In this document: positions 23,363 to 55,150 of the stretch, piece by piece | How positions within the stretch are numbered: position 1 is the stretch's first letter | How the letters are laid out: every line of letters begins with the position of its first letter | Assembly (NCBI GenBank): GCA_010093605.1 | Contig: MU004181.1 | Span: 682,001-746,000 of the forward strand | Source: Lophium mytilinum | Lineage: Eukaryota | Length of the DNA stretch: 64,000 nt | Direction of reading: 5' to 3' | Notes under the pieces: model-generated | What the model was told of the DNA's origin: nothing | Databases searched by the model: none | The model's input: the letters and a program-made list of their open reading frames with translations, nothing else | Made by a program: the position numbers and the translations under genes

Positions 23363-23658
23363 ATGTTGCTAATAACGATGAGAATTGACAGTTGTTCTAC
23401 AGACCTCGCCTTCCCCCCTGCATTCTTCGATATTAGTCGTCCTACTGTTCGCCTCATCAGTGAGTGCGGAGAGACTCTGCTACAAGCTTTGTTAAACACC
23501 TCTTCACGCTTTCGTGTGCCCCTTGTCTAGCTGTGTAATATCTCCTCCAGGAGAGGAAGAACGCTTCATCACAAACATTCCTAGCCGTGTCCGTCATAGA
23601 CCTCCTCACAGCAGGTGAATGAATACGATCCCGTGACCCAAAAGCAAAAGCAAAAAGC

Positions 23659-23752
23659 AAAAAGGAGAAGTCTACGCGACTCGAACCTCGGCGCAGCGTC
23701 CATTCGTTTTCCGCACCTGGTAACGTTAGGCCATCTGCGCCATGTGAGGGTT
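23659..23752 (-). ncRNA. Putative Pol III (type-2 promoter) small RNA / tRNA-derived element, copy 1
   Basis: Minus strand: A-box TGGCGCAGATGG (23742-23731), B-box GGTTCGAGTC (23687-23678), then T5/T5/T4/T4 runs; no acceptor or T stem. Confidence 0.55.
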
Positions 23753-23902
23753 CATCCTTTTTACACTTGTCAACTAAAATTAGTATGCTCATAAGCTCTA
23801 GCGAATCCCGGATGTTCTGTCTAAAGCTACGACCCACTTCTCAAAAAGATAAGGTAGGGTTGTGGTTTCATTCACTCGGGCCCCAAAAGCAAAAGCAAAA
23901 GC

Positions 23903-23996
23903 AAAAAGGAGATGTCTACGCGACTCGAACCTCAACGCAACGTCCATTCGTTTTCCGCACCTAGTAACGTTAGGCCATCTGCGCCATGTGAGGGCT
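23903..23996 (-). ncRNA. Putative Pol III small RNA / tRNA-derived element, copy 2
   Basis: Same A-box (23986-23975), B-box (23931-23922) and oligo-T tail as copy 1. Confidence 0.55.
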
Positions 23997-24879
23997 CACC
24001 CTTTTTACACTATTCGACCAAAATTATCATGGTTATAACGTCTAGGCAATCCAAGAGGCTAGATTAGAGCCACCAACCACTCTTCAAGACTTTGTTAGGT
24101 AGCAGTGGTTTCATTCACTCAAGACCAGCGCTCTAGACATGTATTTCCTATCACCCAACTCTCCTACACCACACTCTCGTACACCATTTGTTTCATCGCT
24201 GTCCGCGTCCCCCTGTTACATTCAAGCAATCCCACCCATCTCATCCCCGCCGTACTTATCATCGACAACACTCATAGCCCTCTGTCCCTCCCAGTCTCCT
24301 TCGACTCCCTTTCGACACCCCTGCTCTCTTACTTCATCGCGCCACAGTCACTACTTACTTGATTCAGACATCCGGAGGTTGTGCTACTCGCTTCCGCGCG
24401 CTTTGACAAAGCTCTTCTGACCACCGTACGAACCTCCGGAATAGTCTTCGAACAAAGCCGTAAAAGGGGAGCCAAGAACAAGATACCCCCCTATACCCAA
24501 GAGCTTTAAGAATGCGACGGCGCAGCGAGGCAATTGCGAGGTTCAGCGGGTACCGGCTCAGCAGGAGGGCTCAGATACAGAGGATTCAATGGAGTTCGAT
24601 TGACGTCAGCATTATTTGCGTGCTGAGTACGTTCGGTACTGCCATCCGTACCAAAGGGAAAGAAAGGCATTGAAGAAGTTAGCAGAGATTGATACAATTC
24701 GTACGGTACTACCCCAAAAGCCCGAGCCCACGGATCTGACAATACTACGCTCCCATGTTGCTCGTACGACACCACCGCGAAAGGCGGTCGGGCCAGTTCG
24801 TAGCTAGGAAGGCAGTGATCAGTTTAATTCACACTACCTAGACCTCTTCACTGCACCTAGATACGTAACACCGCATGGG

Positions 24880-25069
24880 GCAGCCCCGAACAGGTAAGTC
24901 TTGGCAGTGCGTAAAAAGGTGTGGAAGGCAGAGGGCGAGCCCGCGAAATCGCATAGCAGTTTAACCGGGGCGAGTCAGGCTTCAGTTAACCTGCTATGCA
25001 GTTTCGCGGGCTCCCTCTCTGCTTTCCACACTTCTCGCGCACGGCCAAGACTTTCCCGAATGGGCCTGC
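24880..25069 (+). repeat. Long imperfect inverted repeat (fold-back hairpin; candidate milRNA/siRNA precursor)
   Basis: Arm 24896-24971 pairs with arm 24979-25053 (e.g. GAGCCCGCGAAA/TTTCGCGGGCTC, GCATAGCAG/CTGCTATGC, AAGTCTTGGC/GCCAAGACTT) around a ~7-10-nt loop; weaker pairing extends to 24880/25069. Confidence 0.9.
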
Positions 25070-29405: not shown

Positions 29406-30218
29406 GCATGGAGTACACTCACGATAAGCGGCACGGGATTTGCGCCCCGTCGTGACAATGCACAATGGTTTGTCACTTTGTGGGTGCTCTGACACCATCT
29501 CAAAAGTTGGAAAGCAATCACTGGGTAACAAACCTAGGTGCATTCCGGTATATTAGATCATCTTCCGCCTAACATCAGAGTCTACGACCTGCGTACAACA
29601 AAATGAAGCAAGTCCGGTATATAGTGATATCAGTAAGCACGCTAGGCCGCCTCAGGTGGCGGCTTCAGGGTACATTACCTTCAAGTTTCTTTCTTATCAG
29701 TCAAGTCATGTCACACTTCATGACTATCTCTAAGCCTTATAATGAAAAACCCAGAGGTCTATACACTCCTTTATCACTCCTTGGGGTATCCCCATAAGAG
29801 TTTAAAATATTCAGGCACAATGTTAAGTTTAAAGCAGTGCAAATTAGACTGATGCTTAACTCATTACGCCCCAAGTAGCCGGGCTACTCCTCTCAGTGGC
29901 GTCAAGTAAGCAAGATTGTACCCGAACAATAACAGGCTTGTGTAACCAGACTACGGCCTAGCACTGTGACCAGTGAATGGGCAGCAATGTGAAGGCCCTT
30001 GGAAAGTCACCACTGACCAACTCAGTGAATGTAGCTAGGTGTAAGTATAGGTATAAAAACCCCCTCGCAGTCATCCTTCTTGGGACATTAGACTCTTTCT
30101 GCTACTCCCACCACACATACCACCACAACATCCACAAACTACCACCAAAGGCCGCCTAAATTCTCCTCAAAACATTGCTCAATCATCAACCACGTCAGCC
30201 AACTGGGCAAGGTTCACA

Positions 30219-31025
30219 ATGTCGACCACCATGACTCCCTCCCTTACGACTCTCCCCGCCGAAATCCGCCAGCAGATTGCCTCCAATTTCTTCCACAATA
30301 CTATCCGGACCACCGCCAATAGCGACGTCCTGAACACCCCTTGGCAGCTAAAATCCACCTGCAAGCTGCTACAAGCCGACGTCGAGAAACTGGAGGAGCT
30401 CTGGCTGCCCAACAAGCACACCAATCTGACCCTCACCTCCCCCGCCGAGCTCCTCGCGATGCCCGCGCTGATCACCAAACTGCAAGCCAAAGCCGCCTCC
30501 GCAGGAAAGACGTGGGCCGGCTTCCAGGAAGTCGAACTCAAACTCTTCCACCCGACCGCCCTCGCCCAAACCTCCCAGTACCACTCGGTCTCCTACCCTC
30601 TCAGCGTCGACATGCTGATCCAACACACCCTCTCTCCCGCGCTCAAGCGCACCACTATCGAGACCTCCAACGCCGCCGACGAATGGTACGACGCCCGCGA
30701 CGCGCTCTACCCGGCGCTGGACCCCGACGTCACCCGCCGCCTGGCGCTAGACCTCACGCTCCCCGAGGCGGTGGCGACGGCGCTGAAGCGCCCGGAGCGG
30801 CGTAATCTGCGGTGGTTGAGCGGCGCGTTGGACCGCGTTGCGAGCATGGCGTTTACGCTGGGCCAGGATTACATGTATGGATATACGCAGCAGCCGTATG
30901 TGCAGATGAGCAAGCGGAAGGGCGGGGAGTACCCGCGTGTTGAGTGGGTTGGCGAGTTTCCGGCAGTGCGGCGGGATGTGCTCGGGGTGGAAGAGAAATT
31001 CGCGACGAGCGTGAGGTTCGTTTAG
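30219..31025 (+). CDS. Uncharacterised F-box-like family protein, paralogue 1 (intronless)
   Basis: N-terminal SLTTLPAEIRQQI; aligns along its length with the ORFs at 35781 and 39751; TATAAAA at ~30053. Confidence 0.85.
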   Translation: MSTTMTPSLTTLPAEIRQQIASNFFHNTIRTTANSDVLNTPWQLKSTCKLLQADVEKLEELWLPNKHTNLTLTSPAELLAMPALITKLQAKAASAGKTWAGFQEVELKLFHPTALAQTSQYHSVSYPLSVDMLIQHTLSPALKRTTIETSNAADEWYDARDALYPALDPDVTRRLALDLTLPEAVATALKRPERRNLRWLSGALDRVASMAFTLGQDYMYGYTQQPYVQMSKRKGGEYPRVEWVGEFPAVRRDVLGVEEKFATSVRFV

Positions 31026-35154: not shown

Positions 35155-35780
35155 TGCGAGATTTCTCGCGATATAGGTACAGCTCGCTATTTTCAATGGC
35201 CCGGAGGCGAGTTTGTTCAGGAGCTTTCGGTCGTTGAGGCAGTACGTGTGCACTTTTGATATTTATATTCATAGAAATGCTAGCGATTCATACGCCCGTG
35301 TTAGGAGGCGCAGTGCTGAAAGAGTCATGGGTATTGAGTGCTCGCTTGAACGCCGTTGTCGGCGCTGAGATGCCGCGCTCGGCCACTGCTGACAGTGGTA
35401 ATAAGAAAGCAACAGCTAAGCCAGAGCAGTCCCATATGGAGCATACGGAGAGAGTATACCATTCCCTCCATGTCAGTAGAAGTGTTCTATTTCAGGGTGT
35501 CGTGACCATTACATTTTATGCAGAGACTCTCAGATAACCGTGAGGTGCCAATGTAAGGGTATCGCCCATATAGACCATTCAGCTTGCTAGCTCATATCAA
35601 AGGTGGTTTACCACTCAACTTGGTGGATTGCTGCTAGTAAGCCACGCCTACTTAAACACGTGCACAGAGGCCTTCCTGGAACATCAAATCTTCCTGCCGT
35701 CCGCACACCACAACATCAACACCCACGCGCCCGCCGCCCCCTGATCGCCCGCGCCATTACTAAAACCAACTGCACCCAGC

Positions 35781-36659
35781 ATGACCGCAAATCCAGAATC
35801 TTGCCTTATGGCCGCGCCAGCAGAGATACGTCAGCGGATCTTGCAGAACCTCTCCACCACCGAGATTCGCATTAAGGAAAATGGTGACATCTCCAACATG
35901 CCGTGGCAGGTGCTATCTGTGTGCAAGCTACTCAAAGAGGACGTTGACGCAATTCAAAAGCTCTGGATTCCCCTTCAAGACGCCAAGTTCCTTGTCACTT
36001 CACCCGGAGTTCTCCGCCTACTCCCTTCCATGATCGAACAACTGAAGAAGAAAGCTACTGGGCTGAATAAGGAGTGGAGCGGATTTCAAGAGGTCGAATT
36101 CGTCATTTTCCACCAGAATGCCATCATGCAAGCTAGCTGGATACCCAATGACACAAAAAATCTGCCACAATATGTGCTGAAGGCCATTGGGGTAGTTGGG
36201 GAATGGGCTTTGGCCCAACACACTCTGGCGCTTGTTCTGGATCCCAAGGTCACCAAAACCGTCAAAGTCGACATCACGATCACCGAAGACAGCAGCGAAT
36301 ATCTCCGAGATTGGTCGCGAGCACATTGGCGCCATATACTACTTGCGGTTGTCTGTGTATTTTCGGGGGTTGCGAGGGAATATAATAGTGGGTCCAATGA
36401 TTACAACTTCAAGCTGCATAAACTCCGCGCTCTGGCAGCCGCATGCAAAGGCTCCGTCGCCTCTGTAGTCGCTGAGAACGCTGCCGCTGCCGCATCCGCG
36501 GCTGGCACCGGGGAGACGGTCGACCAGATGGAGGGCCGGAAGGGGGACTCGAGACTTGAGTTCGCGGGCAAGCTTCCGAAGGAGCACAGGGCGGTATTCG
36601 AAAGCCAGTTTTCGAGTAGTTGGGTACATATCTATGAGGGGGCTATAGATTGGATCTGA
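35781..36659 (+). CDS. Uncharacterised F-box-like family protein, paralogue 2 (intronless)
   Basis: SCLMAAPAEIRQRIL...PWQVLSVCKLLKEDV...LWIP...WSGFQEVEFVIFH. Confidence 0.85.
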   Translation: MTANPESCLMAAPAEIRQRILQNLSTTEIRIKENGDISNMPWQVLSVCKLLKEDVDAIQKLWIPLQDAKFLVTSPGVLRLLPSMIEQLKKKATGLNKEWSGFQEVEFVIFHQNAIMQASWIPNDTKNLPQYVLKAIGVVGEWALAQHTLALVLDPKVTKTVKVDITITEDSSEYLRDWSRAHWRHILLAVVCVFSGVAREYNSGSNDYNFKLHKLRALAAACKGSVASVVAENAAAAASAAGTGETVDQMEGRKGDSRLEFAGKLPKEHRAVFESQFSSSWVHIYEGAIDWI

Positions 36660-38812: not shown

Positions 38813-39751
38813 TCACCCTAGAAGATGCTCGCAGGTCTTGAGTGTGAAAAGCTGCTTCACTTTTCCTCCTAGAACTTCTGAACTGGAGGGTCTCGACAAA
38901 TTACTGTCCCATCCGAGCGCGCCGAAAGGAAAGACTGTAGCATCGTAACCCAAGGTACCATTTTGAATAAGTAAAGGAACAAAATGGTGGACAGAGGCAA
39001 CCGCAAATTCAAGGAAGAGGATCGTTCTCATCAACCACCCCCATTGATTGGTTGCACCTCTTAGAATGCTGGCAAATGAAGTGCAACGTGCCACGTCAAA
39101 TTTGACGATGGAAGTGCCATCCAGGTTCAAAGCCGGATAGAGAAAGGGCATGCAATCTTGCCACACTAGTTCCGTACAGTAGATCTCAGCGACGTGCTCG
39201 ACCTCCGTGTTGGGCAGCTCTGTTTCTGATGATTTTCGAGTACGAAGTAGTTCTCTAATGTATCGTTTGCAGCGAATTCGTATGCATTCCGATGTGGCTA
39301 GAAACCCAGGGTATCTCGAATCCTTCCTGGCTTCCTCAAGTGCGTCAGGGTGAAAGATATCCAGTTCCACTTCCTTAAAGTACCCCCATTCTTGACTATC
39401 TTGAGCAAGCTTATTTCTCAGTCGGAGGATAGCAGCAGGGACTTGCCTCATCTCAGCGGGTGAGTTGAGGCGGAGGACGGTGCATTTTGAAGGCATCCAG
39501 AGTCTTTGAAGCACCTCCATGTCTTCCCTGAGTAGCTGGCACACATTTTCCAAGTCAGGGGGCGAGCAAATGATATCGCCTTTGTGATCAATTCTAGCAA
39601 CATCGAAGAAATGCGAGAGGATTTGTTGGCGGATTTCGGCGGGTGCGGCGAGAAAAGGGGACTTCACATTGTTGAACTCAGAGCCGAGTCCGGTGGAATG
39701 CGTTTCGTTCGTAGAGCAGGCTGGAGTGGCCATGAACTCGGATCTGGACAT
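38813..39751 (-). CDS. Uncharacterised F-box-like family protein, paralogue 3 (intronless)
   Basis: SPFLAAPAEIRQQIL...VCQLLREDM...LWMP...SPAEM...WGYFKEVELDIFHPDAL; first ATG at 39751. Confidence 0.8.
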   Translation of the reverse strand: MSRSEFMATPACSTNETHSTGLGSEFNNVKSPFLAAPAEIRQQILSHFFDVARIDHKGDIICSPPDLENVCQLLREDMEVLQRLWMPSKCTVLRLNSPAEMRQVPAAILRLRNKLAQDSQEWGYFKEVELDIFHPDALEEARKDSRYPGFLATSECIRIRCKRYIRELLRTRKSSETELPNTEVEHVAEIYCTELVWQDCMPFLYPALNLDGTSIVKFDVARCTSFASILRGATNQWGWLMRTILFLEFAVASVHHFVPLLIQNGTLGYDATVFPFGALGWDSNLSRPSSSEVLGGKVKQLFTLKTCEHLLG

Positions 39752-40648
39752 AGTGGGGCGCGTGTTGTTCGCAGGGTATTTTGCAACGGCGTGTGCAAGC
39801 TCTTCAAGCTCAGTTATGTTGTGGTAAGAAACTGCTGAGTAGGCGGGGGAAGTACGAAGCTGTGGAGAGATGTAACCTGAAGCGAGCGCGTGCCAGGAAA
39901 TAAGTATGTATTTGTAGGTAGTGCTTGGAAGATCTGGCCTCAAGAATGATTCGTTCAGCCATGGAAATTTGTGGTACACTGGGTATGTGCCAGTGGTTTG
40001 ACGATGCGTGAACCGTGGTAGAGATGTCAGGATTTCCTACTGCGGCACAGGGTTCCAATCACAGAATTCAGCATCAGTGACTGCAAGGTTCTAGGTGTCT
40101 TTCTTAGTTTGAACACTCCTGATATGCGAGATGACGGATGTAGAGAAGAGACTAGTTGACCGCGTGGTTGGGGAAATAAATATTATCACCAACTGTCTCA
40201 AAGCTCTACCGATTCAAATACTTGCTTTATATGCACATTGCCCGACAAAACAAGATTTGCTAATGTTAACTATGGTACCCTACATGGGGCGCCTGTTAAT
40301 TAGACTTACAACTCCAGTTATCTGAAACATGAAACCCCGTCACGTGCCTTGGCCCTAACACCAAAATCATGTCTCAAGGAAACTATTAAATCGACTTCTG
40401 ACTGTTTTAGTAAGTTTATTTGAGGAACACTATGAATTAAAAAGCCTGTTGTAAGTTGAAGACTGTCACGTGACTGCTTATAAATTAGTCGTCTCCGTCC
40501 GCCGTCGCGGCGGGCGACACGAGTAGTCTCTACTTTGCCCAAGATGTCAGCCCGCCGCACCTCACTCCATCATATTCTAGCTTCCGGCGAGCAAGAAAAA
40601 AGGGTTTCTATTCTGTGCAGAAAATTTGCGCTCGGCATCGATGTCACG

Positions 40649-54033: not shown

Positions 54034-54317
54034 GTCAGGTTTTTGCGGGATTGGGTAGTGCAGCTTTGCTTCTCTTGGTCAGTTGAGGTTGGGTAGGCAC
54101 GGTTCAGGGTTTGTGGGTGTCTGCGTTTTTTTTATAACTACCTCTGTTTCCGTATTTCAGGATTCTACTTCGTCTTCAACATCTGAAACTAGATGTTACG
54201 ATTCATACATGCTATCCGGCCTCATTATCGCCTAGTCGCATAGTCTCTACCGCTCTACCGTCTCAAACTCCTTCTACTCTCCAGCCTTGCGCTCCCCACT
54301 CCTTCGCCAACCCATCT

Positions 54318-55150
54318 ACTCTCACGTGTCCACTGACTCACCACGTCACGCATGTATCACGCTATCACATGACCCTCACGCTTTCCCCAGCCTACCTGAC
54401 TATAAAACCTTCGGACCCCCAGGCTTACGAAGAGACAGACAGACCGCGACGCAAACCATCAGCCCGGTGGATCATAGGGGTGATCAAATACTGGATTCAG
54501 AAAAGTCATGGCTGAGTGGAGGGAGGACGGTGTAAAAACGAAAGTCAGGACGACGAATGTGTGTGCGTGGGAGGGGCGGGTGGAGCGGAAGAGGGATCCG
54601 GTGGTGGTGAGCAGCTTTAGGGGCTGGAGATGGTTGAGCCCGGAGGAGAGTATCAGGACTGTGAGTTGATGATGCACAACTTGTTTGACGCGTGCTGCGT
54701 GTTATAGTCCATGTTTCTCGTCTACGCACCAAGGGAAGAAGAGTCCAAGACGGCATATCACCCGGTAGAGAGCTGAGGGTAGAGAAGCTCGTGATACCTA
54801 GGTAAAGGCCGGATCGCGGTAGCTGTCTAGACTACTTCAAGAGAGATGACGAGACACGAGAGTAATCTCGCTAGTTTCAACAGTGATGGGAAAGATGAGA
54901 CGTATTCGACCCCCCGTGTGTCCACTCTCACGTGTCCACTCCCTCACCCCGTCACGCGCAAACCGCGCTATCACGTGCGCTCATCCCCAGCCCCAGATTC
55001 GGAGTATAAAACCCCCATCTTACCCACGTTCCTGGAGAGGTAGACAGAGCTCGCAGACTTCACGGTCTGCGAGGCAACCCATCAGCCAGAGGACTCGATG
55101 GGCGGGATCAAAAGGGTTCACTCTCGCCATGTATGCGTGCGTGGGAGGGA
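54318..55150 (+). repeat. Diverged direct repeat (~605-bp period) of a TCAC-rich TATA promoter-like unit
   Basis: ACTCTCACGTGTCCACT at 54318 and 54924, then collinear CTCACC-CGTCACGC, CGCTATCAC, TCCCCAGCC, TATAAAACC (54401, 55005), AGACAGA, CCATCAGCC, GATCAAA, GTGCGTGGGAGGG. Confidence 0.85.

Follow-up and report, generated by a model that had tools for sequence, protein, structure and literature searches.

Internal Pol III promoter boxes in a tandem repeat

What does a short unit that carries the internal promoter boxes of a tRNA gene encode when it does not fold as a tRNA? This question is raised by a tandem pair in the window (the whole stretch of 64,000 nt that was analysed), which is part of an ascomycete genome of 43 Mb in 49 contigs. 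The content of the window is fungal, with intron-containing genes including those for Tom40/porin, 6-phosphofructo-2-kinase and a fungal rhodopsin-domain protein. The pair is intergenic and is flanked by two 3' ends, that of the rhodopsin-domain gene on the plus strand (last open frame up to 23362) and that of an ORF on the minus strand (25373). A sequence-only reading of the window had described two minus-strand units of 244 bp, each with an A box, a B box about 55 nt further on and oligo-T stretches. Both the pattern and the repeat were found: the repeat is direct, with a spacing of 244 nt (23637-23808 and 23881-24052), and on the minus strand each unit carries the A box TGGCGCAGATGG, the B box GGTTCGAGTC at 56 nt from the start of the A box, a T5 terminator and further T runs (Table 1). 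The combination of A box, B box and T5 occurred twice in the window, each time in a tandem unit, and in 0 of 100 random windows generated with a first-order Markov model. The A box of copy 1 has the 12-nt form that tRNA A boxes have in the same genome.

Table 1. Coordinates of the tandem units and of their observed and predicted elements
Feature	Position	Strand	Remarks
Tandem unit, copy 1	23637..23880	-	Downstream copy; retains the downstream module
Tandem unit, copy 2	23881..24124	-	Upstream copy; downstream module removed by the duplication junction; weaker fold
Predicted Pol III RNA of ~102 nt, copy 1	23660..23761	-	AAAAGG to CCUUUU; ends can pair in a 7-bp terminal stem
Predicted Pol III RNA of ~102 nt, copy 2	23904..24005	-	
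TATA-like element TTATGAG, copy 1	23788..23794	-	Family norm is GGG-TTATA
TATA-like element TTATAAC, copy 2	24032..24038	-	
A box TGGCGCAGATGG, copy 1	23731..23742	-	Doubles as 5' strand of the main stem
A box TGGCGCAGATGG, copy 2	23975..23986	-	
B box GGTTCGAGTC, copy 1	23677..23687	-	3' half GAGUC pairs with GACUU (23668-23672) in a short 3' hairpin
B box GGTTCGAGTC, copy 2	23921..23931	-	One A-A mismatch in the 3' hairpin
T5 terminator and back-up T runs, copy 1	23639..23663	-	T5 at 23659-23663
T5 terminator and back-up T runs, copy 2	23884..23907	-	T5 at 23903-23907
Downstream module past the terminator	23615..23638	-	E-box-like GGTCACGGGATC (23627-23638) and ATTCAC (23615-23620)
Main hairpin, copy 1	23688..23742	-	GGCGCAG/CUGCGCC stem, internal loop, apical CGUU/AACG stem; carries compensatory changes
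Main hairpin, copy 2	23932..23986	-	G-U substituted

The pair belongs to a dispersed family

The sequence-only reading had treated the pair by itself and missed its membership in a dispersed family; the count of copies that it proposed for this genome revealed at least 13 dispersed loci. BLAST of the genome with the window units gave 10 matches on 7 contigs. When the genome was searched for a pattern made of the B box and the 3' end, 10 matches were obtained (0 with the reversed control), and locus L013, a divergent member that led to L101 and L102, was newly recognized. The family is defined here as these 13 loci, all in one genome, and their number is a minimum. A tree was built from 12 of them, without L010, which is too divergent for alignment; its groups are L013/L101/L102, L005/L006/L008/L009, and L003/L004/L007 with the window pair, which formed a supported sister pair. 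The B box is weak in L101 and deleted in L102. Together with the weakened copy 2 of the window this would be as expected from birth-and-death evolution. Literature that was searched by topic (as text, not as sequence, and largely open-access) contained no published description of the family. Judged by these matches, the pair consists of members of a real, undescribed dispersed family.

In 12 of the 13 members a TATA-like box, usually GGG-TTATA, is present 30-34 nt before the first A of AAAAGG, and because of this spacing the start of the RNA was placed at AAAAGG. The transcript, earlier put at about 90 nt, is likely to be about 102 nt long, from this first A to the U run. For the family as a whole the predicted geometry is TATA at about -31, A box at +20, B box at about +75 and T5 at about +99, with predicted RNA lengths of 99-131 nt. 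Apart from the B boxes of L101 and L102, the sequence elements of a type-2 Pol III gene are thus all present: internal A and B boxes, oligo-T and a predicted start about 20 nt before the A box. The GGG-TTATA of the family resembles the GGG-TATA upstream of the U6 genes in the same genome.

About 20 nt past the terminator an E-box is found, in the strict form RTCACRTG in 6 of the 13 members versus 0 of 37 nuclear tRNA genes, and 10 of 13 members carry a TTCAC-like motif after it. We take RTCACRTG to be a Cbf1/bHLH site. As the E-box and TTCAC are outside the predicted RNA, they are presumably DNA-level elements. When the downstream module was searched genome-wide, 8 distinct loci were obtained, 4 of them family members and the other 4 without an upstream B box.

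Some related observations were made on other Pol III-type genes. GTGAAT occurs within 120 nt downstream of 11 of the 37 nuclear tRNA genes (L021-L058), where 3% is expected from the window (p 7e-9). The ATTCAC of the family, which begins each tandem unit, is this motif reversed, and GTGAAT/ATTCAC is possibly a site for a factor binding near Pol III genes. U6 snRNA loci were located at L109 (C1:55k), L118 (C4:143k), L119 (C4:427k), L110 (C1:103k) and C23:112k; three of the four scanned are Rfam U6 matches, L110 looks degenerate, and at each locus GGG-TATA precedes the gene and a B box follows the terminator. Another family of Pol III type (L139-L142, C1:148-178k) combines a 5' hairpin and a B box with a TATA promoter nearly identical to the one at the U6 gene L118; its core differs from that of the window family (best profile score E 0.25).

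The units match neither tRNAs nor known RNA families

With tRNA numbering, 1 of 7 and 2 of 7 acceptor pairs can form in the two copies and 1 of 5 T-stem pairs in both, in agreement with the earlier claim that these stems are unable to form. Blank results or pseudogene calls had been expected from tRNA and Rfam searches. ARAGORN found no tRNA in the window and none in 9 of 9 family loci; Rfam gave nothing overlapping the units at E up to 10 and no match, RF00005 included, on the paralogs scanned. Readings as tRNA, split tRNA or known family were rejected, since ARAGORN and Rfam were blank on both the window stretch and the paralogs. An intron was also considered because of a look-alike of a branch point and 3' splice site (CTAAC...CAG) in the window copies; this reading was dropped because CTAAC...CAG is not kept in L004 or L007.

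A family profile was run over 64 loci, of which 40 are tRNA loci, and no ordinary tRNA gene fell below E 0.4. The tRNA-like L056 (E 0.0097) and the B-box region downstream of the U6 gene L118 (E 0.012) were matched over the B-box half only, too weakly to name a parent. L056 (also L089; C1:153899-153971, minus strand) scores 37.7 bits in Rfam and has an irregular anticodon loop and a family-like 3' trailer. This shared trailer, in the best though weak match outside the family, and the tRNA-type boxes with their tRNA-like spacing are what decaying tRNA pseudogenes might leave. We regard such an origin of the units as highly improbable: acceptor and T stems are missing from the window copies, ordinary tRNA genes stay outside the profile, and a different fold is conserved in a core that is under constraint (see below). 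By its conservation, the predicted non-cloverleaf fold already goes most of the way to refuting it.

A three-arm fold is predicted for the RNA

RNAalifold on 9 close copies yielded a three-arm fold of 29 pairs, 4 of which have two-sided changes. The arms are a terminal stem AAAAGGA/UCCUUUU, a long hairpin with the A box as its 5' strand and a short hairpin formed from the 3' half of the B box. The bracketing of the unit by AAAAAGG and CCTTTTT, noted earlier, agrees with this consensus, in which the ends can pair in a 7-bp terminal stem. The pairing of GGCGCAG with CTGCGCC had been claimed as well, with G-U pairs maintaining it in copy 2. The stem is indeed part of the consensus fold, but the G-U pairs by themselves are weak evidence, since a G-C pair becomes G-U whenever its C changes to T. 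Four of the 7 core differences between the copies are C/T. Comparison with the paralogs suggests that most of these T's arose in copy 2, and this copy, from which the downstream module is also missing, may be drifting.

One two-sided change, U-A to G-C in the main stem, is confined to exactly the two window copies. The terminal stem tolerates A-to-G changes only, which leave G-U, and the 3' hairpin is longer in five members through added complementary pairs. In the divergent subfamily and L010 the terminal stem is kept, the A box pairs with an unrelated partner sequence and the tips are longer. Outside the boxes, 17 of 45 paired columns are variable versus 26 of 38 unpaired ones.

In a 31-pair structure, 95.3% of 279 cells pair and covariation is 0.170. 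This covariation was reached in 0 of 500 shuffles of the 3' letters, which ignore relatedness, and slid controls gave at most 0.045; in the same shuffles the paired cells exceeded 500 of 500, whereas measures counting pairs or types did not (142 and 154 of 500). Column shuffles that keep relatedness (n = 400) were compared with a structure derived from the same alignment: the consensus energy was -19.35 versus -8.2 +/- 2.7 (z -4.1, 1 of 400 as low), two-sided pairs numbered 4 versus 1.0 (5 of 400), the covariance term was matched in 6 of 400 and the SCI in 0 of 400. The compensatory changes amount to a handful of events on a small tree, as all 13 loci come from one genome. Since the opposite strand folds nearly as well (consensus -17.1 versus -19.3), it is the promoter boxes by which the strand was assigned. 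Much of the main stem's 5' side consists of the A box, the conservation of which is explicable by selection at the DNA level. Folding of single copies was unremarkable (z -1.6 for copy 1 and +1.2 for copy 2), and the main hairpin has an energy of -21.8 kcal/mol in copy 1 versus -12.0 kcal/mol in copy 2. Judged by the two-sided changes, the predicted fold, and not the promoter alone, is conserved between copies.

A hairpin of this kind could be the substrate of Dicer. The units would then be Pol III pri-milRNA genes, in which the 55-nt main hairpin is cut, the small RNA starts at the U of the A box and the tips of the subfamilies give different milRNAs. For the major milRNAs of Neurospora, T terminators, TATA-like elements and an origin in Pol III transcripts are described (PMC3547838). 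The main hairpin, which covaries and has -21.8 kcal/mol in copy 1, is of pre-miRNA size and lies within a short predicted Pol III transcript, its 5' arm begins with U and its tip is exchangeable between subfamilies. However, it contains internal loops and has weak folding scores, conserved pairing extends beyond it to the terminal stem and the 3' hairpin, and covarying changes fall inside the would-be mature strand. Moreover, with the motifs of the family no family-like entry was met among the listed rows from the supplements of a re-analysis of fungal milRNAs (PMC9757828). We consider a pri-milRNA role unlikely. The milR-1 to milR-4 genes of Neurospora are comparable in that they, too, come from a filamentous ascomycete and are small-RNA genes of Pol III type that combine TATA-like elements with hairpins and T terminators; they differ, in a comparison by description only, in that milR-1 is presented without A or B box and with a precursor of about 170 nt, and milR-4 as co-transcribed with tRNAs (PMC3547838).

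The core is constrained and the copies spread as DNA

The putative transcribed core had been said to be better conserved than the rest of the unit, and this was borne out. Between the two copies 95 of 102 core positions are identical (7 differences; 93%), whereas the upstream flank has 39 differences in 115 columns (66% identity; Fisher p 7e-7). Without the boxes and U4 the counts are 7/75 versus 39/115 (Fisher p 1e-4). In 15 of 15 pairs of members tested, similarity was higher in the core (83-97%) than in either of the 100-nt flanks (40-87%).

Members of distant pairs can be aligned over a unit of about 190 bp, which extends from about -35 (TATA) to about +50 (TTCAC). In close pairs the homology of the flanks is ragged and extends to -206 (L005/L006), +293 (L008/L009), +234 (L101/L102) or +130 (L006/L008). 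No target-site duplication stood out in 11 members, where, the tandem repeat aside, the longest flank matches were 7-8 nt and scattered. Among 41 neighbouring ORFs, most of them picked from 86 ORFs of at least 150 aa, no match to a reverse transcriptase or transposase was obtained, and alignments of 4 and 3 members revealed no shared sharp termini (TG...CA). In the surroundings of 5 loci, RIP indices were unremarkable. The ragged flank homology, the lack of target-site duplications and the TATA that travels with the copies imply that these spread as DNA and not by retroposition. As an upstream TATA is not carried by a retroposed Pol III transcript, DNA duplication followed by decay of the unselected flank is the simple reading.

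These data also bear on the idea of a selfish or neutral mobile unit, either SINE-like or a solo LTR/TRIM with a Pol III promoter, the structure of which serves its own copying. The family is a dispersed low-copy repeat with tRNA-type boxes, a T-rich tail and no cloverleaf, much like AfuSINE2 of Aspergillus fumigatus (PMC5063351), and the ends of the shared unit of distant pairs could be read as those of an element. The boxes of a tRNA-derived SINE head are present, and no parent tRNA was identified. Nevertheless, retroposition cannot move a TATA 31 nt upstream of the start, and there is no SINE body, since the predicted RNA ends 14 nt after the B box, nor an apparent LINE-type tail. The neighbouring ORFs, the ragged flanks of the close pairs and the search for target-site duplications argue in the same direction, and we hold a mobile unit to be quite unlikely. 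The SINE head proposed by the sequence-only reading does not fit flanks that are homologous both upstream of the start and past the terminator. AfuSINE2 itself is described with degenerate boxes, a long body unrelated to tRNA and target-site duplications of 4-14 bp (PMC5063351), whereas in the window family the boxes are sharp and the flanks homologous, and neither a body nor such duplications were seen.

Alternatively, the loci could function at the DNA level, as ETC- or ZOD1-like sites where TFIIIC/Pol III forms a barrier or roadblock; the boxes, the TATA and the E-box would then matter and any RNA would be a by-product. The promoter and extragenic motifs are the best-kept parts, the window pair is situated between two convergent gene ends, L003 lies just beyond the stop of a convergent DUF3425 gene, and in yeast TFIIIC-only sites and weakly transcribed tRNA relics are known (PMC5356446). 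Such sites leave unexplained the low divergence outside the boxes, the two-sided changes of the apical stem and the length changes of the 3' hairpin that preserve pairing; furthermore, the orientation of neighbouring genes is mixed, and the full set of TATA, A box and terminator argues for transcription rather than an ETC site. We judge barrier function distinctly improbable, and the TFIIIC boundary element that had been suggested fails on the two-sided changes outside the promoter boxes. The yeast ZOD1, RNA170 and ETC loci are comparable as non-tRNA Pol III/TFIIIC loci, some from tRNA genes, yet they are described as individual loci (PMC5356446), whereas the window family is multi-copy with a covarying fold.

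RNA reads, other sequence collections and candidate partners

An RNA run was available that fits spliced RNA of the organism itself, as five introns were skipped in two neighbouring genes. No contig of at least 95% identity was found on the window copies; an RNA of 100 nt is easily lost and absent cover proves nothing. Two RNA contigs (summed depth 108) map to copy 1 but carry paralog-type letters. The larger one runs at least 255 letters into the flank of L003, toward the DUF3425 stop, and is therefore most simply the 3' UTR of that gene; it was not counted for a Pol III RNA. L003 is the closest paralog (L003:1528-1631) and is antisense, about 250 nt past the DUF3425 stop. As the RNA contig appears to cross it, a Pol III gene and the 3' UTR of an mRNA possibly overlap there.

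The exact 3'-module pattern was found at 28 loci in metagenome contigs, none of them member-like, in a collection that is not one of fungal genomes and says little on conservation. Their best covariance-model score was 16.2 bits, versus 36.4 and 23.6 bits for divergent members of the own genome outside the model, and 5 of the 28 carry ordinary tRNA genes. Viral contigs contained 0 loci with the pattern. In a six-frame search of the genome that ignored introns, no match was obtained to TROVE (Ro60/TEP1), with the control matched in 2 of 14; the MVP repeat gave no match either, with the control matched in 0 of 14, so that this result is uninformative.

A small structured RNA comparable to vault and snaR RNAs

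From these results we give about an even chance to the reading that the pair represents a lineage-specific family of type-2 Pol III genes, the product of which is a small structured RNA acting as an intact molecule. Of the three options of the sequence-only reading, an undescribed Pol III ncRNA family is the best supported, by the 13 loci, the compensatory changes, the core that exceeds its flanks and the promoter geometry; its transcription is a step that we infer. TFIIIC would bind the A and B boxes, TFIIIB would assemble on the TATA and Pol III would make an RNA of about 100 nt ending in U, as is established for Pol III genes in general. The fold of this RNA would be Y-shaped, with the terminal stem, the long A-box hairpin with its replaceable tip and the short B-box hairpin. 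It probably acts intact, because its invariant parts (terminal stem, junction and 3' hairpin) form a scaffold, whereas the tip of the long arm is replaceable. Least certain is that the invariant terminal stem and 3' hairpin would be a scaffold for protein binding. The RNA might then be a protein ligand or decoy, as are snaR, vault and adenovirus VA RNAs, and the E-box past the terminator is possibly a site at which a bHLH factor keeps the gene open. We infer every step from DNA through RNA to function.

The 5' and 3' ends of vault RNA are paired, as is predicted for the window family, and adenovirus VA RNA is likewise a type-2 non-tRNA Pol III gene. Vault RNA also resembles the family in having a box A and box B promoter inside a short non-tRNA gene (PMC7904556). 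It differs in that the A box of the window family pairs with sequence before the B box; in addition, Rfam gave no vault or Y model match on family members, and the six-frame search of the genome yielded neither the TEP1 match that would accompany a vault RNA nor the Ro60 partner of a Y RNA. The snaR genes of African great apes are reported to have spread by duplication of DNA segments with variable flanks, not by retroposition; their product is a structured, lineage-specific RNA of about 100-120 nt that Pol III makes from an intragenic promoter, with a U tract and subsets that diverge (PMC3045588). However, snaR is Alu-derived, has an oligo-A tract, binds NF90 and is proven to be expressed (PMC3045588), whereas the present family is known from sequence alone; no sequence relation is claimed. 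The best reading is that the predicted build is snaR- or vault-like, yet that the family is a member of neither. Afu-364 (AM921957) of A. fumigatus, an unassigned RNA of about 100 nt on northern blots with four dispersed loci and conservation in A. niger, is similar by description only, and no Pol III promoter is mentioned for it in the account given (PMC2377427).

More generally, filamentous ascomycetes might have an uncatalogued class of Pol III RNAs with a fixed Y scaffold (terminal stem and B-box hairpin) and an exchangeable specificity arm that serves as guide, milRNA source or protein decoy. The window family would then be one of several that this genome has assembled out of promoter parts of tRNA/U6 type and multiplied through duplication of DNA, and would correspond in fungi to the vault, VA or snaR RNAs. 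This extension is tentative, and we consider it doubtful. To our knowledge, little of the Pol III transcriptome has been mapped in filamentous fungi apart from tRNA, 5S, U6, SRP and a few milRNA loci. With the 13-locus family it can be tested concretely and at low cost whether vault- or snaR-like RNAs, or families of Pol III milRNAs, exist in fungi as well. Should no RNA turn up, the family would remain a clear example of Pol III units multiplying as DNA.

Other features of the window

A long hairpin (folding z -13) is present at 24880-25069, 0.8 kb upstream of the pair. Related sequence occurs at 7 other loci in the genome, and Rfam miRNA matches were far below the cut-offs; it may represent a MITE-like or a hairpin-RNA family. 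Three plus-strand ORFs (30057-31025, 35745-36659 and 38813-40036) share N-terminal PAEIRQ.I...F motifs and are apparently a local set of paralogs; two of the three are flanked by an inverted repeat pair. Finally, a direct repeat of 57 nt (81% identity) with CACGTG motifs was found at 54315-54371 and 54921-54977.
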